Source: Dehalococcoidales bacterium (lineage in GTDB: Bacteria > Chloroflexota > Dehalococcoidia > Dehalococcoidales > UBA5760). From it: DNA of 64,000 nt. A model generated the notes under the pieces. The model was given only the letters and a program-made list of their open reading frames with translations. It was not told where the DNA came from and ran no database searches. Shown in pieces: positions 44,552 through 60,884 of this stretch; position 1 is the stretch's first letter, and each line of letters begins with the position of its first letter. Location: assembly GCA_028716225.1 (NCBI GenBank), contig JAQUQE010000003.1, positions 619-64,618 on the forward strand, given 5' to 3'. Position numbers and translations under genes: made by a program.

Positions 44552-46594
44552 TTACTTAGGCAGGTCTGCTGCGGGTATCGCCTCCTTGACTCTGGCAACC
44601 GCCTCTGAGCCAATGGCCTCGGCGGCCTGTAAAGCACCTTCAACCGCCTCGGTCGCCGCTAATTTTTCCGGTACGCCTGACTGAATAGACAATTCTTTGG
44701 CTGTCTCTATTGTCTTGGCAGCAGCGGCCACCAGATCACCGTGTGTTTCAGCAGTCCCCTGTATGACGCCCTGGCTGGCTCCCAGTATGGCATCGTGCGG
44801 GTCTGCCCCCGCCCGGGTGGAGGCTTCCACCACACCTGTCACCACAGCAGCGGCCAGTTGTCCTGAGTCCACCGGTTTGTCATCGGCAATATGTACCGCT
44901 CCGCGTGCTGCCTGCCTTGAAATCTCTTCTCCGTGTATCCTTACCTCTGCCTTTTTACCTTTCAATACTCCATTCAGGCCGTCCTCCAGGGACTTGCTGA
45001 CTTTCTTGGTTACCCGTCGGCCGCGCATGGCTGCCATGGCAGCCACCCGGCCAATCTCCGCAATTTGATAAGCAGTAACGCCCAGGGCAGCATCCAGTCC
45101 CATCGGTAGCCGCCTTAGATTACCGAAGGGGAAGTTGGCTGTCAGGTTGAAGGCGGGTACGGAACTCATGGGACGGGAGAACTCGCGAGTTGGGAACATC
45201 AGTGATTCAAGTATTACTTCGCGACTCACCTCTCCCTCCTCTCGCAGCCTTGCCAGCATGGCTAGAGTAACCAGTCCTGCAATAAAGGTGATACCGAACA
45301 AGAAATCGTAGCCCATCATATTGACAACCGGAAACTGAACCGAGCCGGTCGGGGCAATCCAGGTAAGAGTAAGGTCTAGCTGACGCGTGCCGAAGAAGAT
45401 GGCCAGCAGACCGCCTACCAGAGGGCCTAAACCGGCCCCCAGATTAGTCGCCAGTGATGAGGCTGCCAGGTAGGAGGTTGCCTCCCCTTTAGGGGCCAGT
45501 TTCAAACCGATGGTACCTACGGTCAGTGTCACCCCGGCGTTGGCAATACCGGCGAATATATGCAGGATGAATAGCAGGGGTAAGGTAAGGAAGTATCTTT
45601 CCGGCATAGTGGTAAATATCCAGCCGAGAATGACCAGCAGGTAGAGCGAGGCGCATATGGAGAGGATCACCTTATTGCCGAATCTATCGACGAAATTACC
45701 CCATACCCGCAGAAATAATATATTGAAGATTTGCCCGGTGATGCTCAGGATAATCACCCATGTTAGCGATAGCCCAAGTTGCTCGAACATATAGACAGCA
45801 AAAAAGGGAACCGCGAGGTTCAAAGCAAAATTCCACGAAAACAGAAATTGTACCAGCCGCTTGAAGTTCGTGTCCCTGAAGGGTACCATGAGTCTTTGCC
45901 AGAGAGAGGTTTGAGGCCCGGTTACCGGTTGCATTAACGGTTCAGGCATGCGTGACATGAAGATGGGACTGAGCAGCCCCAGACTCAATGCTCCGAAGAG
46001 AAGGACGTAGGTATAGCCAAAGACAGCACTACCTGTGGCGGCATGATGAAGCCAGTAGTCAACAAATAGCGCGGCTGCCAGGCTGAAGGCGATGCCGGTG
46101 GCTGTAGCGAAGATTAGCCTTCTGGAAAAGAATCTCCCCAGTATCGTTTGGGGAACTAGGTCGCGGACCCAGCCATTCCAGGCGGTGTTGGTCGAGGCAT
46201 GGAAAAGGCCGCGGATGGCCATCAGAGCCAGTAGTAGGGATATCGCTTTATCCCCGGGGATTGCTATGAAGGTTGGGATGAGGGCGATGGGAATCCAGAA
46301 CGACTGGGCGATAAACCAGCTAATCACAGCTATCGCCTTACGCTGCCTGAATTTCTCCACGAGAGAAATGGCGGGTAGCTGCAGTATTTGCATCAGGAAC
46401 GGTAGCGCCGCCAAAATGCCGATTTGCAGACTGTTGGCGCCCAGTGCCAGGGCATAAGCCACCAGGAAACCGCTGGTGGTAATGCTGTTAAAACCGAGAG
46501 ATACTGTTCCTTCCAGTGTTAACCAGCGTAAACCGGAGGCTAGCTCCGCCTCGGAAATGGTGGGTTTAGGCTTGAAAGTCCGGGGGAATTTCAC
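44552..46594 (-). CDS. MFS transporter with a C-terminal Ala-rich soluble extension of about 200 aa
   Basis: 680 aa. About 12 hydrophobic helices span residues 30-470. A non-membrane tail follows (AAMAAMRGRR ... AAAKTIETAKEL ... EAVEGALQAAEAIG). Confidence 0.8.
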   Translation of the reverse strand: MKFPRTFKPKPTISEAELASGLRWLTLEGTVSLGFNSITTSGFLVAYALALGANSLQIGILAALPFLMQILQLPAISLVEKFRQRKAIAVISWFIAQSFWIPIALIPTFIAIPGDKAISLLLALMAIRGLFHASTNTAWNGWVRDLVPQTILGRFFSRRLIFATATGIAFSLAAALFVDYWLHHAATGSAVFGYTYVLLFGALSLGLLSPIFMSRMPEPLMQPVTGPQTSLWQRLMVPFRDTNFKRLVQFLFSWNFALNLAVPFFAVYMFEQLGLSLTWVIILSITGQIFNILFLRVWGNFVDRFGNKVILSICASLYLLVILGWIFTTMPERYFLTLPLLFILHIFAGIANAGVTLTVGTIGLKLAPKGEATSYLAASSLATNLGAGLGPLVGGLLAIFFGTRQLDLTLTWIAPTGSVQFPVVNMMGYDFLFGITFIAGLVTLAMLARLREEGEVSREVILESLMFPTREFSRPMSSVPAFNLTANFPFGNLRRLPMGLDAALGVTAYQIAEIGRVAAMAAMRGRRVTKKVSKSLEDGLNGVLKGKKAEVRIHGEEISRQAARGAVHIADDKPVDSGQLAAAVVTGVVEASTRAGADPHDAILGASQGVIQGTAETHGDLVAAAAKTIETAKELSIQSGVPEKLAATEAVEGALQAAEAIGSEAVARVKEAIPAADLPK

Positions 46595-46676
46595 GGGAAA
46601 TAGACCTCAGGGGGCTAATATTACGGTGCTCTCCTCTACTTCTTCGTCGAAAGAGCTGGATTTATGGCGGATCACG

Positions 46677-46982
46677 CTACGGCGTCCCGGTTTTTGGCTT
46701 TCGTGTTTTACTCTTCCACCCCAGCATTACCAGCAACTCTCCTACTGCAGCGTCACCCATTTCTTCCTTCATTGGCATGTTAGAGTGGATCTTGTATTTA
46801 TTCTGCCGGCCTACTTTGATTTTTGTAATATATCCCTCTGCTTCAAGATCCATGATGATCCTGTGGGCAGTTCGTTCTGTTACTCCGATATTGTCTCCGA
46901 TTTCTCGGGCGGTAAGATTCGGGTGCTTGGCAATGGTTGCTAAAACCAGTCCGTGATTGGTGATAAAAGTCCAATCGCCCAT
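46677..46982 (-). CDS. Winged-helix DNA-binding protein (MarR/ArsR-like wHTH)
   Basis: LATIAKHPNLTAREIGDNIGVTERTAHRIIMDLEAEGYITKIKVGRQNKY. I chose ATG 46982, which has a GAGGAGG SD. Confidence 0.75.
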   Translation of the reverse strand: MGDWTFITNHGLVLATIAKHPNLTAREIGDNIGVTERTAHRIIMDLEAEGYITKIKVGRQNKYKIHSNMPMKEEMGDAAVGELLVMLGWKSKTRKPKTGTP

Positions 46983-47027
46983 TTCAAACCTCCTCAAAAA
47001 TAATTTTTAAAATCACCCCAAAAATAC

Positions 47028-47055
47028 TTGACAAAGTCCCCAAAATATTTATAAT
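47028..47055 (+). promoter_or_regulatory. Consensus sigma-70-type promoter (TTGACA-16-TATAAT) of the kamA/ATP-grasp operon
   Basis: Read directly. It is flanked and interleaved by the direct repeats CCCCAAAAATA (47016-47026) and CCCCAAAATA (47038-47047). Confidence 0.6.
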
Positions 47056-47223
47056 TCTATTCCAGACATATATTTCTAGTCTTTTATATGTTGTATTATG
47101 TTACCAGAAAAGTAATGCGAAATCAATAGAGGTGGCCGGCTGATTAAAGTCATAAAGTTCAACTGACGGTAGTATACAGTCCGAGAGGACTAATTACAGC
47201 TAATTTTTTAAATGGGGGGTTAG

Positions 47224-47553
47224 TTGAAGCATCTGCATTTGAGGAGGAATAGCGAATCGAGAACATTACCGGATGCGGCACAAAAGTATCTGAGGCGGCA
47301 GTTTATGCTTCAGAACGAATATGTTGACAAGCTCAGGTGTTTTGAGATGGATGGCATCTTCCGTGAGCGACCGGTAAAGCGTATCCGTGTCTTTAACCCC
47401 GCCCTGGCTAAAAAGAACCGGGTAGCTATTCGTACTAATTCAGACCTGGAGCTTCATCCTGAGGTACTGGTCTTTGAGGGACATATTGATGCGGAGGATA
47501 AAATTTACTTTGCCGATCGGCGAGCGATGATGCGCAAGATGGAGGAATCATAG
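47224..47553 (+). CDS. Hypothetical protein (109 aa), first gene of the operon
   Basis: TTG start with a GGGGGG SD 4 nt upstream. The protein is basic. I do not recognise a family. Confidence 0.45.
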   Translation: MKHLHLRRNSESRTLPDAAQKYLRRQFMLQNEYVDKLRCFEMDGIFRERPVKRIRVFNPALAKKNRVAIRTNSDLELHPEVLVFEGHIDAEDKIYFADRRAMMRKMEES

Positions 47554-47629
47554 TGCGGTATCGGTGGACTAACAGGGTTATTTGAGTATTTTACCGTTAT
47601 AGAACGGGGAAAAGGAGATAGGAAACAGA

Positions 47630-48982
47630 GTGAACACATCAGCAAGGGCTATAAAAGACCGGCCAGTAATCGGATGTAAAGAAAGATCAGATAGGGCAGA
47701 AAATAGCGGGGGTGTCGTCGAAGACGAACCTCCCGGTAAAGCCGATACCTTCGGCAATTGCGCAGAGGAACCACCAAGTAAGACCGCCACCAACAGAGAC
47801 AGGTTTTTCGGTAATGTACCGGACAGTAACTGGAACGACTGGAGGTGGCATTTTCGTAACCGCATCACTACTGTTGATAAACTGGCTGGCTTTATCCCGC
47901 TGTCCGGTAGTGAGAAGGCTCAGATCAAGCTGGTCACCATGAAGTACCCCCTTTCCGTGACCCCCTATTATCTCTCGCTGATCAACCCGGACGATCCGGA
48001 AGACCCGATTAGGAAACAGGCGATACCATCTATCCTGGAGATCACTATGGGGATGGTGGGTCTGGAAGACCCTCTTGATGAGATGAGGGATTCGGTAGTG
48101 CCAGGTCTGGTTCACCGCTACCCCGACCGGGTCTTGATGGTGCTTACCGATATCTGTCCTATGCTCTGCCGGCACTGTACCCGTAAGCGAGAGTGGCGGA
48201 ACGGCGGTTGGGTACGTAATCCCGCCGAGGTTGAAGCCATGCTTGACTATATTCGCCACCATGAAGCCATCAGGGATGTCATCATATCGGGCGGTGACCC
48301 CTTGACGCTTTCCACGCCTCATCTGGAGGGGGTCATCTCTAAAATCAGAGCTATTAAACATGTGGAGATCATCCGTATCGGGACTAGATTTCCGGTAGTG
48401 CTCCCGCAGCGTATTGACGATGAGCTGTGTGCGATGCTGTCCCGGTACGGTCCGATATGGCTCAACACGCATTTTAATCACCATCAAGAAATCACCCCGG
48501 AAGCGGCGGCGGCCTGCGACCGGTTACTCCGTAGCGGTATTCCGGTCAACAACCAGTCGGTGCTCTTGCGCGGAGTGAATGACAGCGTGGCGGCTCAGAT
48601 GAAGCTGTGCCACGGACTACTCAGAATTAAGGTGCGCCCCTACTATCTGTTCCAGTGTGACGAGGTGCAGGGTACCGAGCACCTGCGCACCCCGGTTGAT
48701 GCTGGTATCAGCATTATTGAAGGGCTACGCGGACATACCTCAGGGCTGGCGGTACCTACCTTTGTGATAGACTTACCTCAGGGGGGTGGCAAGGTGCCCG
48801 TACAGCCAAACTATGTCCTGACAAAGAAGAAGGGAGAGCTGCTGCTGAGAAACTACGAGAGACGCTTCTTCCGTTACCGCAATCTGAAAGTACCGGCAGA
48901 TCTGGAGCCGGAGCCGGCACCGGAGGTAATAAGTCCTTTAAGCGGTTCTGATTCCGGCTTACTGGTAGAAACGGGGGCCTAA
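47630..48982 (+). CDS. kamA: Lysine 2,3-aminomutase (KamA/AblA family radical SAM, PLP-dependent)
   Basis: 450 aa. It aligns by eye with Clostridium subterminale LAM: WNDWRWHFRNRI, the cluster motif CPMLCRHCTRKR, SGGDPL, QCDEVQG, and VIDLPQGGGK (PLP Lys). Confidence 0.9.
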   Translation: MNTSARAIKDRPVIGCKERSDRAENSGGVVEDEPPGKADTFGNCAEEPPSKTATNRDRFFGNVPDSNWNDWRWHFRNRITTVDKLAGFIPLSGSEKAQIKLVTMKYPLSVTPYYLSLINPDDPEDPIRKQAIPSILEITMGMVGLEDPLDEMRDSVVPGLVHRYPDRVLMVLTDICPMLCRHCTRKREWRNGGWVRNPAEVEAMLDYIRHHEAIRDVIISGGDPLTLSTPHLEGVISKIRAIKHVEIIRIGTRFPVVLPQRIDDELCAMLSRYGPIWLNTHFNHHQEITPEAAAACDRLLRSGIPVNNQSVLLRGVNDSVAAQMKLCHGLLRIKVRPYYLFQCDEVQGTEHLRTPVDAGISIIEGLRGHTSGLAVPTFVIDLPQGGGKVPVQPNYVLTKKKGELLLRNYERRFFRYRNLKVPADLEPEPAPEVISPLSGSDSGLLVETGA

Positions 48983-48993
48983 TCCGGGGGTTA

Positions 48994-50004
48994 GTGATGC
49001 GTATTGGTCTGGCCTATGATCTTAAAGAGGTTATCAATCCGGAGGCGGATGGTCCTGAGGATGCCCTGGAAGAGTATGATTCCGGTGAGACGATTGATCT
49101 GATTAGCACGGCGTTTAAATCAGCCGGTCATTCGGTAGTCAATATGGGCGGGGGATCTGATTTTCTTCTTAATATTCTCAGGGAAAGAGTTGACCTGGTC
49201 TTCAACATAGCTGAGGGTAGGGGTAACTACCGAAGCCGGGAGGCCCAGGTGCCCTCCGTTCTGGAGATGCTGGACATCCCTTACTCCGGTTCTGATCCTC
49301 AGTGTCTGGCGATTTGCCTCGATAAGCCCCTTACCAAGCAGTTGATTAAAGCCGCGGGTGTCCCTACTCCGGCCTGGCATGTTATTGATACTCCGGAGCA
49401 TCTATCAGCGGTGTCCTGGAACGGACTAGCCTACCCGGCGATTATCAAGCCCGCTTACGAGGGTTCAAGCAAGGGCATTCATGTTGGCTCTCTGGTAAGC
49501 AACCCGGAGGAAGCAGTTGAGGTGGTAGGGCGTCTTCTTAAATGCTATCGGCAGCCGATGATGCTGGAGGAGTTTATTCCCGGTGATGAGGTCACTGTAG
49601 GTGTAGTCGGTAATACACCGCCCGCAGTACTGGGTATGATGAGGATAGTGCCCAAGAAAAAGGTTGACCATTTTGTCTACTCGCTTGAGGTGAAGCGTGA
49701 CTACCTCAATCTGGTTGACTACGAGTGCCCGGCCCGTCTTGAAGAAGATGTCTTAGCGGAGATAGCGGCATCCAGCCTTAAGGCCTTTTCCGTGCTGGGG
49801 TGCCGGGACTTTGCCCGGTTGGACTTTAGAGTTGGCCCGGATAGAATACCCTATTTTATTGAGGTAAACCCTCTGCCCGGGCTTGGTACATACAGCGACC
49901 TGATTATCATGGCACTCAAGCTGGGCTGGCGTTATGAGGAACTCATCGACACTATACTCAGGGCGGTGGTAAAGAGATATCCGCAATGCGTGCTGGCTCG
50001 GTGA
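48994..50004 (+). CDS. ATP-grasp ligase, D-alanine--D-alanine ligase family (paralog 1)
   Basis: 336 aa with LEMLDIPYSGS, LDKPLTKQL, EEFIPGDEVTVGVVG and ARLDFRV...YFIEVNPLPG. Confidence 0.85.
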   Translation: MMRIGLAYDLKEVINPEADGPEDALEEYDSGETIDLISTAFKSAGHSVVNMGGGSDFLLNILRERVDLVFNIAEGRGNYRSREAQVPSVLEMLDIPYSGSDPQCLAICLDKPLTKQLIKAAGVPTPAWHVIDTPEHLSAVSWNGLAYPAIIKPAYEGSSKGIHVGSLVSNPEEAVEVVGRLLKCYRQPMMLEEFIPGDEVTVGVVGNTPPAVLGMMRIVPKKKVDHFVYSLEVKRDYLNLVDYECPARLEEDVLAEIAASSLKAFSVLGCRDFARLDFRVGPDRIPYFIEVNPLPGLGTYSDLIIMALKLGWRYEELIDTILRAVVKRYPQCVLAR

Positions 50005-50010
50005 GAGGGT

Positions 50011-51015
50011 ATGGTATCAAGGAGACGTATTGCAGTTGTCTATAACGAGCCCTCCCCCTCGCGTTACGATACCACCGGGGAAGAAAAGGCTGCTCTGGGT
50101 GTTCTGGAGTCGGTGGAGGCGGTCAGCCGTGCTCTTCTTGACCTTGGCTATGACACCCTCAATATTCCGCTGGCCTCTCCTATCGAGGCAGCCCGGGAAA
50201 AGCTCGGGTCTTTGAAGGTAGATCTGGTCTTCAATCTCTTCGAAGGCTTTTGTGGGCAGCCGGAGACCGAAGCGATGGTACCCGATTTTTTAGCCGGGCT
50301 TGGTATAGCTTACACCGGCTGCCCGGCTAGCGCGCTAAAAGTAGCCCTGGATAAGGCTAAGTCCAAGCAGATTATGAAAGCGGCTGGAATCAAGACGCCC
50401 GATTCCCAGCTGCTTACTTCCGAGGCTCTCTCCCGGTTTAACCTGGGTTATCCCTGTATCGTCAAGCCCCGTGGTGAGGATGCGAGCCACGGTTTATCTC
50501 AAGCCAGCGTGGTGAATGACCTTAAGTCACTGGCAGGTCAGGTTAGCAAAGTGTGCCAGTTCTATGGCGGTGAAGCGCTGGTAGAAGAGTTTGTTGATGG
50601 GCGGGAGTTCAATGCTACCGTTCTCGGCAACGGCGGTGGTGTCGTACTACCCGTATCGGAAATCGTCTATTCACTGCCTTCGGACATGCCTCGAATTCTT
50701 ACCTTCGCTGCTAAATGGGAACCGGAAAGCCGGTACTTCAAGGGAACGAAGAATATCTGTCCCGCCCAAATTTCCTCTACCACTCAGCAGTATATTACCG
50801 GAACGGCACGCAGGGCTTTCTTGCTGCTGTGCTCCTGGGGCTATGCCAGGGTGGACATGCGTTTAGATAGAGAAGGTGAGCTCAACGTAATCGAGGTGAA
50901 TCCAAACCCCGATATCTCCCCCGGTTCTGGAGCCGTGCTTCAGGCTGAAGCCGCCGGGATGAACTACACCCAGTTCATAGATAAGATTACCCGGCTTGCT
51001 TTTAAGAAGGGTTAG
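50011..51015 (+). CDS. ATP-grasp ligase, D-alanine--D-alanine ligase family (paralog 2)
   Basis: 334 aa with LGIAYTGC, LDKAKSKQI, EEFVDGREFNATVLG and ARVDMRLD...NVIEVNPNP. Confidence 0.85.
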   Translation: MVSRRRIAVVYNEPSPSRYDTTGEEKAALGVLESVEAVSRALLDLGYDTLNIPLASPIEAAREKLGSLKVDLVFNLFEGFCGQPETEAMVPDFLAGLGIAYTGCPASALKVALDKAKSKQIMKAAGIKTPDSQLLTSEALSRFNLGYPCIVKPRGEDASHGLSQASVVNDLKSLAGQVSKVCQFYGGEALVEEFVDGREFNATVLGNGGGVVLPVSEIVYSLPSDMPRILTFAAKWEPESRYFKGTKNICPAQISSTTQQYITGTARRAFLLLCSWGYARVDMRLDREGELNVIEVNPNPDISPGSGAVLQAEAAGMNYTQFIDKITRLAFKKG

Positions 51016-51017
51016 TC

Positions 51018-51497
51018 ATGACAGTCAGTATGAGACCTATGACCCGGGATGATAAGCCGGAAGTAATCAGGCTGCTTAAGGCTACGCCGGAGTTTGAGCC
51101 GTCTGAGGTGGTGGTAGCGGAAGAAGTTATCGATTGCTACCTTGACCGACTGTCCGGATCAGGGTACCACGTTCAGGTAGCGGTAGCAGAGTCGGAGGTG
51201 GCCGGCTATGTCTGCTACGGGCCCACCCCAATGACTGAAGGCACCTGGGACCTTTACTGGGTGGCGGTCTCCGCTGAGAGGCAGGGTGGAGGTATCGGTA
51301 GTGCCTTAGTTAAACTGGCTGAAAACGAGGTAAGAAGCGCCGGGGGGAGGCAGATTCTTATTGAGACATCATCCAAGCCGGGGTATGAAAAAACGAGGCG
51401 TTTTTACTTCAGCCGGGGTTATCAGATAGTCGGCTGTATCCCTGATTTCTATACGTCCGGGGATGATAAGCTTGTACTCCGAAAACTATTGGTGTGA
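51018..51497 (+). CDS. GNAT-family N-acetyltransferase
   Basis: 159 aa with the acetyl-CoA motif RQGGGIGSALV and ARRFY-like RRFYFSRGY. Confidence 0.85.
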   Translation: MTVSMRPMTRDDKPEVIRLLKATPEFEPSEVVVAEEVIDCYLDRLSGSGYHVQVAVAESEVAGYVCYGPTPMTEGTWDLYWVAVSAERQGGGIGSALVKLAENEVRSAGGRQILIETSSKPGYEKTRRFYFSRGYQIVGCIPDFYTSGDDKLVLRKLLV

Positions 51498-51574
51498 TAC
51501 CCCGGGGCGCAATCCGAAGATCAGGATTATTGATATAATAGTGTTGCGGCGTCGAAAAAAAGCGGGATAAGAGC

Positions 51575-53353
51575 GTGTTTAGAATTCGTAGAGTTTACGA
51601 CAATGTAACTCCGCTGAACGAAGAAGCAATTGGCCAGGTTCAGGAAATCCTCCGCACCCAGTTTCCTGGTCTGTCCCGGAGGGACATTGCCAAATTACCC
51701 CAACAACTGCGCAACCCTTTGAAGTATCGCTTTCGTGCCATTCTCTTTGTGGCCGAGGACTCGAAGGATAGGGTGATGGGTTTTGCCATTCTCTTTCACG
51801 AGCCGGTGCTTAACTTTGGCTTCCTCGATTTCATATCCGCGGCCGAACGAGAGACTGGTAAGGGTATTGGCAGTGCCCTCTACGAGAGGGTTTGTGAAGA
51901 AGCCCTCTTCCTGAAAACGGTCGGGCTTTTCCTGGAGTGCCTGCCGGATGATCCCAAGCTGTCACGTAACCCTGAAATCAGAAAGCAGAATGTCGCTCGG
52001 CTGCGCTTCTATGAAAGATACGGTGCCAGGCCGATTGCCAACACCGCTTACGAAACCCCTCTAGAACCTGGAGGCGATAATCCCCCTTACCTGGTTTATG
52101 ATGACCTGGGCCAGGGTAGACCTCTGGGGCGAGATGAAGCACGTGCTATTGTCCGGGTGATTCTGGAACGAAAGTATAAGGGTGTCTGCCCTCAGAACTA
52201 CATTGAGATGGTGGTCGAGTCGTTTCAGGATGACCCGGTAAAACTGAGAAAACCGAGGTACGTAAGGAAGAAGCCGCCGGTACCGGTCAGGATTTCCCCG
52301 CCGCTTGACAAACGCATCAGGCTGGTTATCAACGACCGACACGCCATTCATCATGTCGAGGAGCGTGGCTACGTTGAATCTCCGGTAAGGATAAGCTCGA
52401 TTCTGGAGGAGCTTGAGACCACCCGGCTTTTTCACAAGGTCAGCCCCCGGCACTTCGCCGAAAAACGAATCAAGGCAGTCCACCGCAGCCAGTTTGTTGA
52501 CTACCTGAAGAAAGTGTGCACTAACCTCGACCCGGACAAGTCCATTTATCCCTACGTCTTTCCGATTCGTAATGTCGCCCGCCCTCCCAAGGAGCTTTCC
52601 ATCCGGGCAGGCTATTATTGCATCGATACCTTTACGCCGATAAATCGGAATGCCTATCTGGCAGCCAGAAGGGCGGTAGACTGTGCTCTGACTGCAGCGA
52701 AAGAGATTCTGGACGGGTACCGTCTGGCTTATGCCCTGGTCAGGCCGCCCGGTCACCATGCCGAAAGGCGTGCTTTCGGCGGCTTCTGTTACTTTAACTC
52801 GGCGGCCGTAGCTGCCGAGTATTTGAGTGTTCATGGTAAGGTTGCCATACTGGATATTGACTATCACCACGGCAATGGACAGCAGAATATATTCTACGAG
52901 CGTGCCGATGTCTTGACCGTATCTATTCACGGCCACCCCAATTTTGCCTATCCCTACTTCAGTGGTTTTGAAGGCGAGGAAGGTGCCGGCCCCGGCAAGG
53001 GGTATAATGTCAATATTCCTCTCCCTGAGAATGTCAGTAATGAACGCTATCTCAATGTGCTGGGTCGAGCACTGGGGCGAGTAGCCAGATTCAGACCCAA
53101 ATTTCTCATCGTTACCCTTGGACTGGATACGGCTAAAGAAGACCCGACGGGTAGCTGGAGCTTACAGGGCGAGGATTTCCAGACTATAGGAAAGATGATT
53201 GGCTCGCTCCATTATCCGACCATTGTCGTCCAGGAAGGAGGCTACGATACCAGGGTGCTCGGTATCAATGCCCGCCACTTTTTCGAAGGGCTCTGGACCG
53301 GTTCTTTCACCTTACCCCCGCGCTCCGGCAGGAAAAAGCCGGCGATGGAATAG
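51575..53353 (+). CDS. Fusion protein: an N-terminal GNAT-like domain plus a C-terminal histone-deacetylase-family (AcuC/APAH-like) zinc amidohydrolase
   Basis: 592 aa. Residues 1 to about 200 carry RETGKGIGSALYERV (the GNAT Q/RxxGxG motif). Residues from about 250 carry RPPGHHA, DIDYHHGNG and EGGY (HDAC catalytic His pair, Asp/His zinc ligands, catalytic Tyr). Confidence 0.85.
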   Translation: MFRIRRVYDNVTPLNEEAIGQVQEILRTQFPGLSRRDIAKLPQQLRNPLKYRFRAILFVAEDSKDRVMGFAILFHEPVLNFGFLDFISAAERETGKGIGSALYERVCEEALFLKTVGLFLECLPDDPKLSRNPEIRKQNVARLRFYERYGARPIANTAYETPLEPGGDNPPYLVYDDLGQGRPLGRDEARAIVRVILERKYKGVCPQNYIEMVVESFQDDPVKLRKPRYVRKKPPVPVRISPPLDKRIRLVINDRHAIHHVEERGYVESPVRISSILEELETTRLFHKVSPRHFAEKRIKAVHRSQFVDYLKKVCTNLDPDKSIYPYVFPIRNVARPPKELSIRAGYYCIDTFTPINRNAYLAARRAVDCALTAAKEILDGYRLAYALVRPPGHHAERRAFGGFCYFNSAAVAAEYLSVHGKVAILDIDYHHGNGQQNIFYERADVLTVSIHGHPNFAYPYFSGFEGEEGAGPGKGYNVNIPLPENVSNERYLNVLGRALGRVARFRPKFLIVTLGLDTAKEDPTGSWSLQGEDFQTIGKMIGSLHYPTIVVQEGGYDTRVLGINARHFFEGLWTGSFTLPPRSGRKKPAME

Positions 53354-53368
53354 TATCGGGGTGACTTG

Positions 53369-53527
53369 ATGGGCCAGGGTGGTATTGTCGGCTTCTACAG
53401 CTGCCCGGATTGTTGCTGTTACCATCGTTATCCTGAACCACACAAAAATGACATTTGTGCATCCACTCGGGCAAACTCCAGTCTTGAGCACAACGCTCAG
53501 CATTCAGTTGGAGGCACAGTGATTTGA
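53369..53527 (+). CDS. Possible small Cys-rich peptide (52 aa). Not in the ORF track.
   Basis: Hand translation gives MGQGGIVGFYSCPDCCCYHRYPEPHKNDICASTRANSSLEHNAQHSVGGTVI. A GGGGTGA SD lies 4 nt before the ATG. It starts 16 nt after the stop of the GNAT-HDAC gene. Confidence 0.2.
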   Translation: MGQGGIVGFYSCPDCCCYHRYPEPHKNDICASTRANSSLEHNAQHSVGGTVI

Positions 53528-53644
53528 TAGGCTTATGACAGGATGTTAGACTACTACGGTAATGATGATTGGGTGCTTTTACCTGAATTTGGTGTCTATT
53601 TCCCCATCTACGCCACTTAAAGAGGATGATAATGTAGTATTGGT

Positions 53645-55024
53645 ATGAACAAAAGAGAATTTGTAGCTAGTATAGTAATTATTGTTGCAGGCATAATGGC
53701 CTTGTTAATTGCAGGAGTACTGTTCCAAGAGAGGGGGACCACACCCGCCACGGAGCAGTATCTTCGACCGGAAGGATGGACAGAAGAAACTCACGGTGAC
53801 GATGTAGATCCGAACTATAAAATTGTCTTCCCCCAGGATCAAGTTAACCGGATGAAGATCACTATTTCCCCGGATGATTGGGAAGCAATGCAGGCAAATA
53901 TGACCGATCTACTGGGTGCCCCCGGAACCAACCAGCAGGTTGACACGAAACCGGAGAGCCCTATCTGGGTACCGGCTAAGATTGAATTCAACGGTCTGAT
54001 TTGGAACAACGTTGGTATCCGCTACAGGGGCAGTTCGACACTTATAAAGTGGGGCAGTGGCACACTGAAGATACCTTTGAGGTTTAACTTCGATAAGTTT
54101 GAGGATAAATACCCTGAAATCAAAAACCAGCGGTTCCATGGTTTCAAGAAGCTGGCGATGGCGAATGCTATCTTTGACCCGACGTATATGCGTGACGTTA
54201 TCATGTCCGACGTTCTGGCAGAAGCGGGTTTAGTAGCCGCTGAGACCGCCTATTACGAAATCGTCATGGACTATGGTGAAGGTCCGGTTAACCTTGGTCT
54301 TTATGTGGCGATAGAGGTCATTGAGCATACAGTCATTGAGCGTTACTTTGGTGATAAATCAGGCAATATCTACAAGGGACAAAGCGTGGGGGTTAGCCTG
54401 GCAGAAGGTACATTCGATTTGATTCGACACGGCTTCGTGAAGAAAAACAACGAAACTGAAGCTGATTGGGGTGATATTGAAAAATTGTATGCCATCCTCC
54501 ATTCGAAAGAGCGTATATCTGATCCTGAGGCCTGGCAGGAAAGTCTGGAGTCGGTATTTAACGTAGACGTCTTTCTCAAGTGGCTGGCTATCAGTGCTGT
54601 CATCGAGCACTGGGATACGTACGGGGACAGGCCAGATAATTTCTACCTCTATAATGATCCTGACAGCGAGTTGCTTACCTGGATATCCTGGGACCATGAT
54701 ATGATACTGGGCATAGTGGGTGAGGGGAAAAGCAGCGCATCCCTGGGTAGAGAGGAGATAGGGCGGGACTGGCCGTTGATTCGCTACCTGCTGGATGACC
54801 CAATCTACTACAACCGCTACGTAGATTATATCCGGGAAACGATTGAGGGGCCTTTTGACCCGGCTAAGCTGGAGGTAAAGTGCAGGACATTGGCAGAATT
54901 GATTGCTCCCTATATTGCGGAAGAATCCGGTGAGGCTGCTTTTGAATCGGGCGTTGAGAGGTTAATCAACCGTATTTACGAGCGTTATCAGGTGGCCGGG
55001 GATTTTCTGGATACTTGGAGGTAG
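53645..55024 (+). CDS. CotH-family atypical kinase with an N-terminal membrane anchor
   Basis: 459 aa. It has one N-terminal TM helix (ASIVIIVAGIMALLIAGVLF) and CotH-like blocks (KIPLRFNFDKF, NIYKGQ, NFYLYNDP...WISWDHDM). Confidence 0.85.
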   Translation: MNKREFVASIVIIVAGIMALLIAGVLFQERGTTPATEQYLRPEGWTEETHGDDVDPNYKIVFPQDQVNRMKITISPDDWEAMQANMTDLLGAPGTNQQVDTKPESPIWVPAKIEFNGLIWNNVGIRYRGSSTLIKWGSGTLKIPLRFNFDKFEDKYPEIKNQRFHGFKKLAMANAIFDPTYMRDVIMSDVLAEAGLVAAETAYYEIVMDYGEGPVNLGLYVAIEVIEHTVIERYFGDKSGNIYKGQSVGVSLAEGTFDLIRHGFVKKNNETEADWGDIEKLYAILHSKERISDPEAWQESLESVFNVDVFLKWLAISAVIEHWDTYGDRPDNFYLYNDPDSELLTWISWDHDMILGIVGEGKSSASLGREEIGRDWPLIRYLLDDPIYYNRYVDYIRETIEGPFDPAKLEVKCRTLAELIAPYIAEESGEAAFESGVERLINRIYERYQVAGDFLDTWR

Positions 55025-55806
55025 ACAAGTTGGCAGTGCAATTACACGATGTGTCGCTTGGTACTATAGATATATTGCCGGAGAGGTTTGAACGTAAGTA
55101 TTATTTGGTACCTGAAGAAGCCGGTATCGCTTATGGGCTTCTTCGGCACATGTGTCTACCGGCTAGAGAATATTTTTCCGAACAGATAAATAGTCTTTAC
55201 TTCGATACTGCCGGCCTGGAACAGCATGAAAGGTCCGCTGCGGGTGACTATAACAAAGATAAGGTACGCATCCGCTGGTACGGTGAGGATAGGGATATGA
55301 ATGGAATGCGGTCCGTGTTCATTGAACTGAAATCGAGGCGGGGTTTCACCAGTACCAAGCAACGACTGAAGTTATCCGTACCGGCCGTGAGTTTGACGCC
55401 AGGTAATCTTGTCAGAGGCATTGTCCCTATAACCCTGCTGATGGATACCCTGGCAAGATTTGGCTATTTCCCGCACGAGATGCTCCACCCGGTAATCAAG
55501 ATATCCTACTGGCGTCATCGCTTTAGCGAGATTATGACCGGGCAACGGGTTTCGCTTGATTGTCATATTCGTTCTACGATGGTAATGCCAGGACAAGGTA
55601 ATGGTGAAAAGGAGCTGGAGTTACCCGGCGGTATTATAGAGATTAAAGGATTGGCTATGGATCTTCCTGTCAGTTTGATACGAATGAGGACGTTATATGT
55701 AGATTGGACTAGATTCTCCAAATATTCCTCGTGTATCGATTCGCACCTCGAAGAGCCCGGCTCTATGGGGCGCCTGTCACCCTCAGGGAGAATAACCCAA
55801 CTATAG
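55015..55806 (+). CDS. VTC-domain protein (Vtc4-like polyphosphate polymerase / triphosphate-tunnel domain)
   Basis: 263 aa with ERFERKYYL, SLYFDT, KVRIRWYG and FIELKSRRGFTSTKQR. No TM segments. The start overlaps the CotH stop. Confidence 0.85.
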   Translation: MEVDKLAVQLHDVSLGTIDILPERFERKYYLVPEEAGIAYGLLRHMCLPAREYFSEQINSLYFDTAGLEQHERSAAGDYNKDKVRIRWYGEDRDMNGMRSVFIELKSRRGFTSTKQRLKLSVPAVSLTPGNLVRGIVPITLLMDTLARFGYFPHEMLHPVIKISYWRHRFSEIMTGQRVSLDCHIRSTMVMPGQGNGEKELELPGGIIEIKGLAMDLPVSLIRMRTLYVDWTRFSKYSSCIDSHLEEPGSMGRLSPSGRITQL

Positions 55807-55842
55807 TCAGCTATGATAACATGATAATACTAGGAGGAATAA

Positions 55843-56502
55843 ATGCCAGAGGGATTTGATCTATTTGCATCCTTACCAGAAATGAGAGAGGCCATTATAC
55901 CCCTCGGATTCTCGATGTTAGGGGCTGTCATTACCTATTTGATATATAACCTGTTTTACGGCTCTAGCCATATCGGGGCCGGTGTACATCGCACCTTTCT
56001 TGTCGGTGGCCCTGTTATCACAATGATATTCCTGGTTATCCAGACCTCTATACCACTCGGTCTAGGGTTACTCGGAGCACTTGCCATAGTGCGTTTCCGA
56101 ACGCCGGTAAAAGACCCAGCCGAGATAGGATTTCTACTTCTGTTGATTGCTTCCTCGCTAGGGGCCGCAACCGGTAACTACCTGATAACTGCTTTAATGT
56201 TTATTATTGTCTTCGGTGCTCTAGGGGTACACAGGTTAATAAGCAACCGGGTTACTCTATTGGGAAGAGGACATCTGATGATCGCTGTTGACCGAGGCTC
56301 TTTTCCATCAATAGAGAAGAAGCTGATGGCCTTCCTCTCGGAGAAGCTTACAGGCTTGCATCTGGAGACTATATCCACTATTGATGATCGGATTAGCCTA
56401 AATTACCAATACAAACGTCGGGCAGATTTCGACTGGCCGGCTTTTATAAATGAGTTAAACCAGATTGCAGGGACGTCGGGGATTGAGGTTTTCGTGAGCT
56501 AA
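55843..56502 (+). CDS. DUF4956 membrane protein
   Basis: 219 aa with several TM helices, the signature AIVRFRTPVKDPAEIGFLLL and a C-terminal soluble domain. GGAGG SD. Confidence 0.85.
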   Translation: MPEGFDLFASLPEMREAIIPLGFSMLGAVITYLIYNLFYGSSHIGAGVHRTFLVGGPVITMIFLVIQTSIPLGLGLLGALAIVRFRTPVKDPAEIGFLLLLIASSLGAATGNYLITALMFIIVFGALGVHRLISNRVTLLGRGHLMIAVDRGSFPSIEKKLMAFLSEKLTGLHLETISTIDDRISLNYQYKRRADFDWPAFINELNQIAGTSGIEVFVS

Positions 56503-56542
56503 TACCGGCTGAAATCGAAAGCGTGGGCGGTTATGAGGTCAT

Positions 56543-57211
56543 TTAGTACTTAGATACCCCTATTTCCTCCATTTTCCCTGTGACGGTAAATACTATACGT
56601 TCGCAGATGTTGGTTACTCTATCGGCGCTGCGCTCCAGGTTGTGAGCTACCCAGATAAGCCGGGTGGCTCTGGTAATGGTCTTGGGGTCCTCGGCCATAA
56701 AGGTGAGTAGCTCTCGGAAAACCTGGGAATACAGATTATCCACGTCGTCATCTTCAGCAGCGACCCGGCGTGCCGTTTCGGTGTCATTGTTGATAAAGGC
56801 ATCCAGGCTCTGTTTCAGCATACTGATAGTCTTTTCAGCCATACGGGGGATGTCGACCAGCGGCTTAAGCGGCGGCTCGTCTCCTATCATCAACACTATC
56901 TTGCTGATACCTTCGGCATGATCACCGATCCGTTCCAGCTCGGCGATGATATTGAGTACGCCGATAATAATACGCAGGTCGCTGGCCATCGGCTGCTGGG
57001 TAGCGATCAGTCCGATACAGTCGCCTTCTATACCGAATCGCTTACTGTTTATCTTCTGGTCATCTTTAATAATCTGGTGAGCGAGGGACAAGTCTCTGTT
57101 CTTGAGCGCTTCGATGGACCGCTCGAGTGCTTTTTCTGCCATGCTTCCCATCGCCATAACGTCGTCCTGAATCGCCCTCAGCCTTCTGTGAAAAACCGTT
57201 CTCGTTTCCAT
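56543..57211 (-). CDS. phoU: Phosphate signalling complex protein PhoU
   Basis: 222 aa with two PhoU repeats (ERIGDHAEGI, ERSADRVTNI). Confidence 0.93.
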   Translation of the reverse strand: METRTVFHRRLRAIQDDVMAMGSMAEKALERSIEALKNRDLSLAHQIIKDDQKINSKRFGIEGDCIGLIATQQPMASDLRIIIGVLNIIAELERIGDHAEGISKIVLMIGDEPPLKPLVDIPRMAEKTISMLKQSLDAFINNDTETARRVAAEDDDVDNLYSQVFRELLTFMAEDPKTITRATRLIWVAHNLERSADRVTNICERIVFTVTGKMEEIGVSKY

Positions 57212-57230
57212 TATTAACCCCTCCTGGTAT

Positions 57231-58049
57231 TTAACCGAACCTGCCGGTAATATAGTCTTCCGTACGTTTATCTCTGGGATTTGTGAATAGAGTTGATGTG
57301 GCGCCGTATTCCACCAGTACCCCGGCTCTATCCTCTGCCATCATGAGAAAAGCGGCCATATCCGATACCCGTGCTGCCTGTTGCATATTATGGGTGACGA
57401 TAACCACAGTATAGTCTTCAATCAAAACCCTCATCAGGTCCTCAATTTTTAGTGTCGCTACCGGATCGAGGGCGCTGCAGGGTTCGTCCATCAGGATTAC
57501 CTCGGGCTCCACCGCCAGGACCCGGGCAACGCACAGCCTTTGTTGCTGCCCCCCAGATAGCGCCAGGGCAGAATTGGCTAATTTGTCTTTCACCTCGTCC
57601 CACAGGGCTGCCTGACGCAGACTTCTCTCGACAATTTCTTCAAGCTTACCCCGGTTCTTCATGCCGTGTCGTCGTGGGCCATAGGCCACGTTTTCGAATA
57701 CAGACATGGGGAAAGGATTCGGTTTTTGGAATACCATGCCTACCCTTTTCCTGAGATCGACGACGTCGATAGACTCCTGATATATTGATATGCCTTCAAG
57801 CTCCACGCACCCTTCTACCCTGACATTGGAAATAAGGTCATTCATCCGGTTAAAAACACGCAGGAAAGAAGATTTCCCGCAACCGGAAGGTCCGATGATA
57901 GCCGTAATCGCCTTTTCCGGTATTTCCAGAGTAACGTCCCTTAATGCCTGGAAGGAACCGTAGTAAAGGTTTAGCTGTTCCGTTCTTAGTTTTACCCGGT
58001 TATTCCGGCTCATCTTGCTATCATTTGATACCGCTAAGTTTACACTCAT
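57231..58049 (-). CDS. pstB: Phosphate ABC transporter ATP-binding protein
   Basis: [17 protein letters not shown] and ILMDEP. I chose ATG 58049, which overlaps the pstA stop (TAATG). The longer track ORF, reaching 58373, overlaps pstA. Confidence 0.93.
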
Positions 58050-58909
58050 TAGCTGTGACTCCTTCGCCCGGACCTTGATCTTATAACGGCAGAAGCAATA
58101 TTGAAGGCTAGAACTACTCCCAGCAGTACCAGGGCAACACCCCACATCGTGCCCTTGGGCATACCGGGAACGTGAGCTGCCACAGTGTAAAGGTGGTAAG
58201 GGAGGGCCATAAAGCGGTCGAAGAGCGACTGCGGCAGACCGGGAACCAGAAAAGCAGCCCCCACTACTAATATCGGGGCCGTCTCTCCTGCCGCTCGAGA
58301 AATGGCCAGGATGACCCCGGTGAGAATTCCCGACCAGGCCTGAGGCAACACCACGTGCCTGATCGTCTGCCACCTGGTAGCCCCGATAGCCAGACTCCCC
58401 TCCCGGTATTCCCGCGGTACTGCCAGCATGGCTTCTCTGGAAGTTGTCACCACCATTGCCAGTGCCTGACAGGCCAGGGTTAGACTGGCCGAAATTAGCG
58501 ACATGCCGAATTGGAATGTCATCACAAACAGGCCTAAGCCGAAAAGCCCGTAAACGATACTGGGAACACCGGCCAGGTTGAGGATGGCCAGGTTAATAAT
58601 GCGGGTTATCCGGTTGTCTTTAGCATACTCGGAGAGGTAAATACCGGCCGATACGCCTATCGGCAGGGAGAATAAAACCGTACCCAGCATAAGTAAGAAA
58701 GTGCCTATCAGGGCCGGGAATATGCCTCCGGCCTTGCCTGCCTCTGTCGGAGGCTGAGTAAGAAACGCCCAGTCGATTACTCCGGCGCCATTAGCGATTA
58801 TGTAGATGATGATAAACGATACGATGGCTATGACGACGATGGTAGCCAGGCCCAATAGCCCGAAGGCAGCGCGCTGTGAAAATTGACGTGATGATCGTGG
58901 ACTATTCAT
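58049..58909 (-). CDS. pstA: Phosphate ABC transporter permease PstA
   Basis: Six-TM permease with the EAA-loop region ([15 protein letters not shown]). I chose ATG 58909, just after the pstC stop. Confidence 0.9.
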
Positions 58910-58916
58910 CTGATCG

Positions 58917-59855
58917 CTACCTCGCAAACCTTCGTTTTTGACGTTCCAGAACCCTGCTGGCGATAAGGTTAACCCCCAGTGTAATGAAGAATAAGACCAG
59001 GCCGATGGCAAATAGTGCCTGGTACTGTAGGCCACCACGTACGGCATTGCCGATTCCGGAGGCAATGGCTGCCGTCATCGGCATCATCGGTTCGGTTGGT
59101 GATTGGGGTACTGCCAGAGCACCGCCGGCTACCATTAGGACCGTCATTGTCTCACCGATAGCACGACCTACACCCAGCATCACGGCTGCGGTAATACCGG
59201 ATAAGGCGGCCGGTATAGATACGTGTCTGATTGTTTCCCACCGAGTTGCGCCGAGAGCATAGGATGCCTGCTTGAAATCATCGGGGACAGCTCGCAGAGC
59301 ATCTTCAGAAACGCTGATAATAATGGGCAGACTCATCATCGACAACATGATCGCTGCGGAAAATCCGGTCAGCCCGGTATTGAGGTTAAAGGTGCTCTGA
59401 ACCAGCGGCGACAATATCATGAGACCGATAAAACCCATCACTACCGATGGTATCCCCGCCAGCAGTTCAACGAGGGGTTTTACCATGTTTCTTACCCTCG
59501 GTGAAGCGACCTCAGCAAGGTAAGCAGCACAGGCGATTCCGATAGGTATCGCAATCGCTGTTGATACCATAGTGACGATCATCGTGGATACCAGGAATGG
59601 CAATATGCCGAAGGTGGGCGGCTCGGATACCGGGTACCACTTGGCTCCTGAGAAAAACTGCCACGGATTCGTGTGAAGAAAAATCGGCGCACCTTCTCGT
59701 ATCAGAAAGAAGACGATCCCCAGTAGAATTACTATGGCCAGTATTCCGGCAAGGAGAATCCACCCCTCGATGAACCTCTCGCCCGAACGCCGACGCCGCA
59801 GCCCCCCGACTTTACCGGCTGCGGCGATGACAGCTGATATGCTTCGCATTAGCAT
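58917..59855 (-). CDS. pstC: Phosphate ABC transporter permease PstC
   Basis: 312 aa permease with the EAA loop (KQASYALGATRWETI). Confidence 0.9.
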   Translation of the reverse strand: MLMRSISAVIAAAGKVGGLRRRRSGERFIEGWILLAGILAIVILLGIVFFLIREGAPIFLHTNPWQFFSGAKWYPVSEPPTFGILPFLVSTMIVTMVSTAIAIPIGIACAAYLAEVASPRVRNMVKPLVELLAGIPSVVMGFIGLMILSPLVQSTFNLNTGLTGFSAAIMLSMMSLPIIISVSEDALRAVPDDFKQASYALGATRWETIRHVSIPAALSGITAAVMLGVGRAIGETMTVLMVAGGALAVPQSPTEPMMPMTAAIASGIGNAVRGGLQYQALFAIGLVLFFITLGVNLIASRVLERQKRRFAR

Positions 59856-59869
59856 ATTTCCCCTCTACT

Positions 59870-60787
59870 TTATGGCAGCGGGACGTAGCCCACTTCATTT
59901 ACCTTTAGCTGACCTTCTGCCGAAAGGCAGTAGTCGATGAAAGCCTTGATGATACCCTCCGGCTCGCCATCAGTATAGTAGAGTAGCGGCCTGGCAATAG
60001 GATATGTTCCATTCAGAGCTGTTTCCACACTGGGGAGAATACCGTTGTCATTGGTAGTAATCTTAATACCCAAGGGCTTCACTTCATCCGTGAGATAGCC
60101 TAATCCGGGGTAAAAGATGGCATTAGGGTTGCCGGCCGTTTCCGACACTCCCCCTTCAGTCGATGGCAGCATCAGTACATCAGGTCCATACTCCAGGCTC
60201 TTGTCTTCGGTAGGCAGTCCCTGCATCTGTACCACGTGCTCCTTGAAGAAGACATGGGTACCGGAGTTGGTATCCCGTGAAATAGCCACGATTTCGGCAT
60301 CGTTACCACCGAGTTCACTCCAGTTAGTTATCCGGCCGGCATAGATAGCTGAAATCTGGGCGATGGTCAACTCGGATACCGGGTTGGACGGATGCACTAC
60401 TACCGACAGGGCATCGGTAGCTACATGAATCTCGTAGGGGTATACCCCCTTTGACTCAGCCTGTTCAATCTCTAGCGATTTGATCTTGCGTGATGCCTGA
60501 CATACTTCGGTAGTACCGTCTATCAGGGCTGCTATACCCGCTCCGGAACCGGGACCGCTGACAGAGATTCTCACACCGGGATTTATCGTCATGAAGTCCT
60601 CGGCCCATACCGAGGTAATGGGTGTTACCGTATTTGACCCGACTATACTGAAGGTGCCGGATAGCTCTGTACCCGGTGATGGAGTGACTGGCGCTGGCCC
60701 GGGGTTGCCGGCACAACCGGACAGGCTAAGACCGCCTACCAGCAAGGTTGATAAGATTAACCACTTATGCCATTTCTTGATTCTCAA
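59870..60787 (-). CDS. pstS: Phosphate-binding lipoprotein PstS
   Basis: 305 aa with a signal peptide and lipobox LSLSGC, GSNTVTP and SRDTNSGT. AAGGAGGA SD. Confidence 0.9.
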   Translation of the reverse strand: MRIKKWHKWLILSTLLVGGLSLSGCAGNPGPAPVTPSPGTELSGTFSIVGSNTVTPITSVWAEDFMTINPGVRISVSGPGSGAGIAALIDGTTEVCQASRKIKSLEIEQAESKGVYPYEIHVATDALSVVVHPSNPVSELTIAQISAIYAGRITNWSELGGNDAEIVAISRDTNSGTHVFFKEHVVQMQGLPTEDKSLEYGPDVLMLPSTEGGVSETAGNPNAIFYPGLGYLTDEVKPLGIKITTNDNGILPSVETALNGTYPIARPLLYYTDGEPEGIIKAFIDYCLSAEGQLKVNEVGYVPLP

Positions 60788-60872: not shown

Positions 60873-60884
60873 ATCTGATGGGGT

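Follow-up and report, generated by a model that had tools for sequence, protein, structure and literature searches.

A conserved five-gene block combining a lysine-type aminomutase, two ATP-grasp ligases and a GNAT-deacetylase fusion, and its possible beta-lysine amide product

The window analyzed here is a stretch of 64,000 nt from a Dehalococcoidales bacterium (contig JAQUQE010000003.1). On its plus strand, at 47224-53353, six genes form a tightly packed run behind a sigma-70 promoter. Five of them, coding for an aminomutase, two ATP-grasp ligases (AG1 and AG2), a small GNAT acetyltransferase and a GNAT-deacetylase fusion, are the subject of this study. The open reading frames (ORFs) and domains lie where a sequence-only reading of this DNA had put them, and Pfam and NCBIfam bear out every domain assignment in the operon. 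The features of the locus are as follows.

44552-46594, minus strand: major facilitator superfamily (MFS) transporter gene, beyond the wHTH regulator
46677..46997, minus strand: small winged helix-turn-helix (wHTH) regulator, MarR/TrmB-like, divergent from the operon (Pfam HTH_24 and MarR_2)
46993..47055, plus strand: promoter region, with a 12/12 TTGACA-16-TATAAT at 47028-47055 and three direct repeats
47224..47553, plus strand: 109-aa ORF with no Pfam, NCBIfam or PADLOC match
47630..48982, plus strand: predicted lysine-type 2,3-aminomutase of the KamA family, radical S-adenosylmethionine (SAM)/pyridoxal phosphate (PLP) enzyme (TIGR00238; match to 2A5H)
48994..50004, plus strand: ATP-grasp ligase AG1, Ddl-like (Dala_Dala_lig_C, E = 6.5e-35)
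50011..51015, plus strand: ATP-grasp ligase AG2, of a separate orthogroup, following AG1
51018..51497, plus strand: small GNAT acetyltransferase (Pfam Acetyltransf_1; orthologue of PDB 2R7H)
51575..53353, plus strand: GNAT-deacetylase fusion, 592 aa (Pfam; PDB 6PHR/9GKZ; AlphaFold2 (AF2) model)

The intergenic gaps are, in operon order, 76, 11, 6, 2 and 77 nt. The small gaps and one junction of 77 nt had been read correctly, while the second junction given as 77 nt measures 76 nt. The source annotation uses generic names ("ATP-grasp domain-containing protein", "D-alanine-D-alanine ligase", "histone deacetylase family protein" and "AcuC-like/GNAT"), and none of the five enzymes has a Pfam, NCBIfam or PADLOC model of its own. 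PADLOC gave no match for the six operon proteins, and a defence-system reading was therefore dropped.

Relatives of the locus were collected by scanning the fusion protein against one genome per species. There are at least 571 relatives, and the best 80 were analyzed, with gene content determined by tblastn with all proteins of the window. These best 80 are full-length fusions with 57-98% identity (L003 and L001 at 97-98%). Their hosts belong to Chloroflexota, Desulfobacterota, Gamma- and Alphaproteobacteria, Planctomycetota, Bacteroidota and candidate phyla, with a few archaea. The aminomutase, AG1, AG2, the small GNAT and the fusion occur together in 40 of the 80 loci, and in 22 of the 36 well-flanked loci, which have a flank of at least 5 kb on each side. 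The complete set is present in Chloroflexota, Desulfobacterota, Gamma- and Alphaproteobacteria, Planctomycetota and Bacteroidota (at least six phyla by our count), and the block is carried by the cultured Dasania phycosphaerae GY-19 (locus L055). Since the five genes recur together at this frequency and in several phyla, their grouping is not a chance juxtaposition, and it is well supported that they are a co-inherited functional module. Co-conservation over phyla had been set beforehand as a test of the sequence-only reading, which passed it.

The gene order differs between lineages. In Dehalococcoidales it is aminomutase-AG1-AG2-GNAT-fusion, in most Proteobacteria and in Planctomycetota it is aminomutase-AG1-AG2-fusion-GNAT, and in Desulfuromonadales AG1-AG2-GNAT-aminomutase stands beside the fusion. 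AG1 immediately precedes AG2 in every order, and the flanks of the block are unrelated between lineages. All-against-all clustering of 1105 ORFs from these loci revealed no conserved sixth partner. There is no recurrent flanking family either: the 99 flanking proteins fall into 138 Pfam families with at most five members each, MFS being found in two. An exporter common to the loci was found neither in the ORF clustering nor in this Pfam tally. The wHTH gene lies upstream of the aminomutase only in L001, L002, L003, L010, L022 and L080, all from Dehalococcoidales, and the 109-aa ORF is present in only four loci, also all from Dehalococcoidales. The functional unit is five genes, and the MFS, the wHTH and the 109-aa ORF are local additions in Dehalococcoidales. 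Thus the five enzymes proposed as parts of the operon stand as its core, while the 109-aa ORF and the regulator turn out to be local, and a role of the adjacent MFS as exporter of the system is not supported, as no transporter or other neighbor is conserved.

In two Dehalococcoidales loci, the wHTH gene and the 109-aa ORF form a divergent two-gene unit away from the block (L002 14856-16293; L022 408-1905). Because this pair stands apart there, the 109-aa ORF belongs with the regulator and not with the pathway.

The aminomutase matches the lysine 2,3-aminomutase (LAM) of Clostridium subterminale (2A5H) at E = 6e-134, with the active site aligned without gaps. With 335.7 bits, it scores above the cutoff (199.2) of TIGR00238, the KamA-family model. 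It stays below the cutoffs of the equivalog models for AblA (475.6 against 525.4 bits), the glutamate enzyme (440.7 against 650), the arginine enzyme (412 against 600) and EpmB (233.1 against 369.3). Of the LAM C-terminal domain, only LAM_C profile positions 1-55 of 127 are represented, so that about 70 residues are missing, which partly accounts for the shortfall against the AblA model. At the other end, the N-terminal ~55 residues are not conserved in relatives, and the conserved core spans approximately residues 56-417. The equivalents of 2A5H C125, C129, C132, R134, D293, D330 and K337 are kept in 36 of the 37 block-associated orthologues. In the numbering of the window protein, the CxxxCxxC cysteines C176, C180 and C183 are invariant (37/37), and the PLP lysine K388 is found in 36 of 37, as are D344 and D381, which correspond to Asp293 and Asp330 of 2A5H. 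In 2A5H, these two aspartates hold the epsilon-ammonium of lysine, and they are replaced by Lys and Asn in the glutamate enzyme. These residues and scores support a lysine-type assignment, neither glutamate-type nor EpmB-type, for the predicted enzyme. A lysine-type aminomutase is also what had been read from the DNA beforehand, and the EpmB type or other substrate that would have spoken against that reading is not indicated.

A KamA-like gene of 599 aa was also observed near the fusion in a putative Nanoarchaeota metagenome-assembled genome (MAG) (L063 5258-7057, minus strand). Its product carries Lys in place of Asp293, Thr in place of Asp330 and Val in place of the PLP lysine. Because all three are replaced, it is not a lysine aminomutase, and it may lack the usual mode of PLP binding.

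The two ligases of the window are paralogues with 29% identity. Among the relatives, AG1 and AG2 form two orthogroups: all nearest neighbors are within the own group (89/89), and the identity between groups averages 26%. They match Ddl and VanA structures at only E = 1e-23 to 1e-27, and the scores with the Ddl model NF002378 are 171.2 bits for AG1 and 146.7 bits for AG2 against a cutoff of 243, which places both outside Ddl. The catalytic residues equivalent to K144, K215, R255, D257, E270 and N272 of Escherichia coli DdlB are invariant in 43 AG1 and 46 AG2 sequences. In the 43 AG1 sequences, the equivalents of G276 and S281 (E. coli DdlB numbering) are also invariant. The first-substrate site of AG1 is distinct: H63 is replaced with Glu74 and E68 with Arg82, both invariant, and Glu27, Asp29 and Glu83 are invariant as well. 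DdlB L282 corresponds to Asp302, mostly Asp in the group, and the Tyr216 position is variable. In AG2, an invariant Lys-Trp occupies the K215/Y216 position. From these data it is well supported that both are ATP-grasp-competent, probably amide-forming ligases that diverged anciently and are non-redundant. The conservation of two distinct ligases argues for two ligation steps or an obligate pair. As they are found in Dehalococcoidales and are always paired with the aminomutase, AG1 and AG2 are not cell-wall enzymes.

The fusion consists of a GNAT domain with a helical extension (residues ~1-230), a stretch of lower confidence (~231-262) and a zinc deacetylase (~263-592). Residues 267-573 match best, among PDB entries, 6PHR (E = 6e-72) and 9GKZ (3e-71), followed by 3MEN and 3Q9B. 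In a 2024 survey of bacterial deacylases, cluster 4 enzymes are bacterial polyamine deacetylases (PMC11532494). Cluster 4 ApaH proteins dimerize via the L2 "polyamine-specificity loop" bearing Arg95, and their residue 106, Glu in MrApaH and His in PsApaH, touches the distal substrate nitrogen (PMC11532494). In the fusions, H394, H395, D429, H431, D518, Y557 and R332 are invariant in 77-78 of 78 sequences; R332 is the equivalent of the dimerization residue Arg95, and the catalytic, zinc-binding and Arg signature of cluster 4 is thus complete. The equivalent of position 106 (residue 342) is Pro, Ala, Ser or Thr among the 78 sequences instead of the acidic residue or His of cluster 4, and conserved Arg336, Lys/Arg339 and Arg344 lie near it. 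The architecture also differs from the stand-alone ApaH of ~340 aa, being either a GNAT fusion of 570-600 aa or a triple fusion of 720-760 aa. NCBI labels some fragments 'acetylpolyamine amidohydrolase'. The comparison supports a deacetylase half of the acetylpolyamine amidohydrolase (APAH), small-molecule type, with all its catalytic residues in place. It would be tuned to a short amine, maybe bearing a carboxylate, rather than to a long polycation. The earlier description as a deacetylase of the histone deacetylase (HDAC) type is therefore right as to the arginase/HDAC fold and is refined to the APAH type, with the small GNAT now tied in by the triple fusions described below.

The N-terminal GNAT of the fusion matches Acetyltransf_1 with 29.5 bits against a cutoff of 20.7. 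The N-terminal half has 64% mean column identity across phyla, and the G-x-G-x-G acetyl-CoA loop (G95, G97, G99) is conserved. An AlphaFold model of this domain from a shallow alignment (pLDDT 45) was discarded; AF2 on the N-terminal half with a deep alignment gave a GNAT fold with an extra helical extension at pLDDT 90.3. Foldseek related this model to GCN5 and AAC(6')-Ii with probability 1.0 and a TM-score of ~0.7-0.8 on the target, at a generic GNAT level of 12-22% identity. A profile of the domain against PDB sequences gave only 3PP9, a putative streptothricin acetyltransferase, at a non-significant E = 0.008, which was not used as evidence. An exhaustive hidden Markov model (HMM) search retrieved only 222 representative clusters at E<=1e-30, and nearly all full-length matches are fusions of ~580 aa or proteins of 720-760 aa.

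The small GNAT is related to PDB 2R7H at orthologue level (E = 5e-36), and 2R7H keeps nearly all invariants of the family. This structural-genomics entry, Dde_3044 of Desulfovibrio alaskensis G20, bears no annotation beyond "putative D-alanine N-acetyltransferase", and the searched literature contained no mention of Dde_3044. The name chosen by the depositors hints at Ddl-like neighbors, in which case the complete block may be present in G20. The small GNAT is connected with the fusion by three triple fusions of the order GNAT-deacetylase-GNAT.

L044 8630-11053: triple fusion, Rhodospirillaceae
L064 9974-12259: triple fusion, Desulfocapsaceae
L070 10001-12307: triple fusion, Methyloligellaceae

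These proteins are 761-807 aa long, with the small GNAT appended C-terminally and no aminomutase or ligases nearby. As Rosetta-stone evidence, they point to a joint action of the small GNAT and the fusion. It is well supported, as judged from the protein sequences, that the module holds two putative acetyl-CoA-dependent acetyltransferase domains and one deacetylase of small-molecule type predicted to be active.

Several loci vary in composition. In L082 (5293-9858, on a contig of 2.85 Mb), aminomutase-AG1-AG2 is followed by a stand-alone 285-aa GNAT of the N-terminal type, with neither the deacetylase half nor the small GNAT nearby. This suggests that the synthetic half includes the fusion GNAT, with the deacetylase as a separable part. 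In two Dehalococcoidales loci (L022 7554-9947 and L007 3110-5437), a MarC-family membrane protein, a third GNAT and an M20 amidohydrolase are inserted between the small GNAT and the fusion, and MFS or amino-acid permeases are found near some Dehalococcoidales blocks with this insertion. Fusions not linked to the aminomutase and ligases show no recurrent pattern among their neighbors. The possibility that they are a separate clade was rejected, as linked and unlinked proteins are intermixed, L064, for instance, sharing 85% identity with the linked L072. The pattern looks like one enzyme whose linkage varies, not like two enzymes. All that Desulfuromonas sp. TF carries is a fusion gene that is unlinked and broken up in the gene calls, and it is therefore of little use as a model.

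Two further loci were noted. L083 has truncated AG1 and fusion genes beside M20 peptidase genes, and this block may be decaying. L071 (8687-13285), from a Thermoplasmatota MAG, has amino-acid dehydrogenase genes of the Glu/Leu/Phe/Val type on both sides of the fusion and no aminomutase or ligase.

The promoter of the window locus had been called consensus, and the perfect TTGACA-16-TATAAT at 47028-47055 agrees with this. It is the sole 12/12 match within the 12 kb scanned, and it is kept in the two closest relatives. The direct repeats CCCAAAAATAnTT (three copies, at 46993, 47017 and 47038) are spaced 21-24 nt apart and overlap the -35 and -10 boxes. They are a candidate operator, possibly for the divergent wHTH. 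No riboswitch or structured RNA was found by Rfam at E<=1 across 46500-53800. A structured leader was rejected, as the 169-nt leader does not fold better than shuffled sequence (z = -0.3).

The block is chromosomal, with the same GC content as its flanks, and is surrounded by housekeeping genes (phosphoenolpyruvate (PEP) carboxykinase, dihydropteroate synthase and the Pho regulon). The MFS protein has a C-terminal non-membrane extension of ~250 residues, rich in Ala, Gly and Glu and without a family match, and its gene is seen elsewhere only in the same-species relative L003. Further downstream, at 53645-63334, there is a tight trio of a CotH kinase-like protein, a VTC-domain protein (overlapping CotH by 10 nt) and a DUF4956 membrane protein. 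It adjoins a complete Pho regulon on the opposite strand (PhoU, PstB, PstA/C, PstS, a PhoR-like kinase and a PhoB-like regulator). The position of the trio suggests a polyphosphate or phosphate theme.

On these grounds, it is tentatively proposed that the five genes together provide a complete cytoplasmic route to a small N-acetylated beta-lysine amide or oligo-amide, most likely a compatible solute or a nitrogen-rich metabolite. First, in a well-supported step, the aminomutase would turn L-lysine into beta-lysine. Second, AG1 and AG2 would each make one amide bond via an acyl-phosphate intermediate, so that beta-lysine and one or two partners with an amine or carboxylate group, among them possibly another beta-lysine, yield a di- or tri-amide. 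Third, as the intact acetyl-CoA loops suggest, the two GNAT domains would acetylate free amino groups and neutralize their charge. Fourth, the APAH-type domain, whose enzyme type is supported, would remove the N-acetyl group from a short diamine-like chain, either stripping a transient protecting group or remobilizing the compound. N-epsilon-acetyl-beta-lysine is sterically equivalent to N-acetylputrescine with a carboxymethyl group. In the window, the module stands behind a strong promoter with a divergent wHTH regulator. The lack of a conserved exporter fits an intracellular product. A possible, more specific form is a hitherto undescribed metabolite, for instance an N-acetylated beta-lysyl dipeptide or short beta-peptide, that serves as a major cytoplasmic solute or nitrogen store, with the GNAT-APAH fusion as a novel type of single-polypeptide switch acetylating and deacetylating its pool. 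The lineages to which such a solute or nitrogen store would apply are the abundant marine-sediment Dehalococcoidia, Desulfobacterota, Woeseiaceae, Methyloceanibacter and Phycisphaerae.

Several points weigh against the proposed pathway. The product, the substrates of both ligases and the compatible-solute role are all deduced. The saline and sediment bias of the hosts is anecdotal, coming from record titles only. In 11 of the 36 well-flanked loci, the fusion has no aminomutase or ligase within 10 kb, and there it may have a substrate independent of these enzymes. A fused acetyltransferase and deacetylase would also run a futile cycle if they acted on the same nitrogen.

The strongest alternative, itself unlikely, is a beta-lysine-polyamine conjugate. 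The ligases would join beta-lysine to putrescine, cadaverine or spermidine, and the GNAT and APAH domains would manage polyamine acetylation as in ordinary homeostasis. The deacetylase is most similar to the characterized polyamine deacetylases 6PHR, 9GKZ and 3Q9B, it keeps the dimerization Arg of cluster 4, and its fragments bear the NCBI label mentioned above. Moreover, the fusion and the triple fusion stand alone in many genomes, where polyamines would be the obvious substrate. However, the contact to the distal nitrogen (Glu/His106) is replaced with a small neutral residue flanked by conserved basic ones, no polyamine biosynthesis gene is recurrent among the flanking genes, and linked and unlinked fusions are one intermixed family.

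More doubtful still is the polymerization of beta-lysine by the ligases into an oligo- or poly-beta-lysine, used as a nitrogen reserve or a cationic antimicrobial, with acetylation for self-protection or charge control as in streptothricin resistance. The broad and largely taxon-congruent distribution of the block is unlike that of antibiotic clusters. Its chromosomal position amid housekeeping genes, with GC content like that of its flanks, speaks against this alternative as well, and there is no conserved exporter or immunity gene among the flanking proteins, although sporadic transporters (MFS, MarC, APC) occur at Dehalococcoidales loci. Two ligases would be reminiscent of the two ligase activities of cyanophycin synthetase. 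The hint of streptothricin chemistry comes from 3PP9, the best sequence match of the N-terminal GNAT, and from nourseothricin acetyltransferase among the GNAT fold matches; the former match lacks significance, and at 12-22% identity the fold matches are of the generic GNAT kind.

It is improbable that only N-epsilon-acetyl-beta-lysine is made, by the aminomutase and one GNAT, and recycled by the deacetylase, with the ATP-grasp pair unrelated or auxiliary. The linkage of AG1 and AG2 to the aminomutase is as tight as that of the GNATs, and no locus with the aminomutase has lost them. A lysine-type aminomutase with a GNAT does follow the logic of AblA/AblB, and an APAH-type site could fit this compound by chemical analogy, but the AblB model gives no match and the AblA model stays below its cutoff. 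Very improbable is a post-translational modification in which beta-lysine is ligated to a protein, in the style of beta-lysylation of elongation factor P (EF-P) or RimK tailing, with the GNAT and HDAC domains controlling protein lysine acetylation: EpmB is a KamA-family enzyme that is likewise C-terminally short, some ATP-grasp enzymes act on proteins, and HDAC-family enzymes can deacetylate proteins, PsApaH having weak peptide activity (PMC11532494), but the EpmB model gives 233 bits against a cutoff of 369 where the AblA model gives 476 bits, neither EpmA, EF-P nor another conserved target gene is nearby, no neighbor is conserved beyond the five genes, and the deacetylase groups with small-molecule and not protein deacylases.

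If the proposed pathway to a new beta-lysine solute or beta-peptide is true, it would explain the handling of osmotic or nitrogen stress in widespread, mostly uncultured sediment bacteria and would extend beta-amino-acid metabolism by a new branch. It would give functions to two large mis-annotated groups, the "D-alanine-D-alanine ligases" outside cell-wall contexts and the "histone deacetylase family proteins", as well as to the orphan crystal structure 2R7H. Biocatalysis would also gain two new ATP-grasp ligases that act on beta-amino acids. Because the block is present in cultured D. phycosphaerae GY-19, the question is directly testable; the genetically tractable D. alaskensis G20 is a probable second carrier of the block.

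The enzyme families of the module are all known, but neither its pathway composition nor the GNAT-APAH(-GNAT) architecture has been described before. No description of the five-gene combination was found in the searchable literature. The view that no characterized pathway has this composition is therefore upheld, on the basis of Pfam, NCBIfam, PADLOC, the source annotations and that literature. None of the precedents cited in the sequence-only reading has the full composition, and negamycin, which combines beta-lysine with an ATP-grasp enzyme, had been overlooked.

The D-Ala-D-Ala ligase/VanA family has the same fold and ATP-grasp catalytic residues as AG1 and AG2 and includes their best solved relatives, but the two ligases score far under the cutoffs, and the first site is altered (H63 to E, E68 to R). 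AblA/AblB of methanogens and some bacteria likewise starts with a lysine 2,3-aminomutase, continues with GNAT-type N-acetylation, and leads to a cytoplasmic amino-acid-derived product with no dedicated exporter. Here, in contrast, the aminomutase does not reach the AblA cutoff and most of its C-terminal domain is missing, neither GNAT protein matches the AblB model at E<=0.01, and the block adds two ATP-grasp ligases and a deacetylase, both absent from AblAB. The yodP-kamA (yodT-yodO) operon of Bacillus subtilis likewise unites an aminomutase with a beta-lysine acetyltransferase and a deacetylase. It has no ATP-grasp ligases, and its CoA-transferase and aminotransferase genes are absent here, where the deacetylase is of the arginase/HDAC fold and fused to a GNAT. 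The fold of the YodQ deacetylase is M20, which parallels the M20 amidohydrolase inserted in L007 and L022.

N-acetylglutaminylglutamine amide (NAGGN) is an N-acetylated dipeptide-type osmolyte made by a GNAT and an ATP-dependent peptide ligase, also from a small self-contained cassette scattered over phyla. It uses other amino acids, without an aminomutase or a deacetylase, and its GNAT-ligase bifunctional protein, asparagine-synthetase-type amidotransferase and peptidase domains were found neither in the five proteins nor in recurrent flanks. In the negamycin (neg) cluster of Kitasatospora, beta-lysine formation is co-located with an ATP-grasp amide-forming enzyme (bioRxiv 10.1101/2025.05.27.656397). 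This is an actinomycete antibiotic cluster of narrow distribution, with hydroxylase, methyltransferase and N-N-bond-forming haem enzymes and without the GNAT/deacetylase pair. Finally, the cluster 4 ApaH enzymes (MsApaH 6PHR, PsApaH 9GKZ, MrApaH 3Q9B) share with the deacetylase of the module the His-His dyad, the Asp/His/Asp zinc site, the Tyr and the L2-loop Arg. The deacetylase here differs in its fusion to an N-terminal, and sometimes also a C-terminal, GNAT, in the change of residue 106 to P/A/S/T, and in its genomic tie to beta-lysine formation instead of polyamine catabolism.

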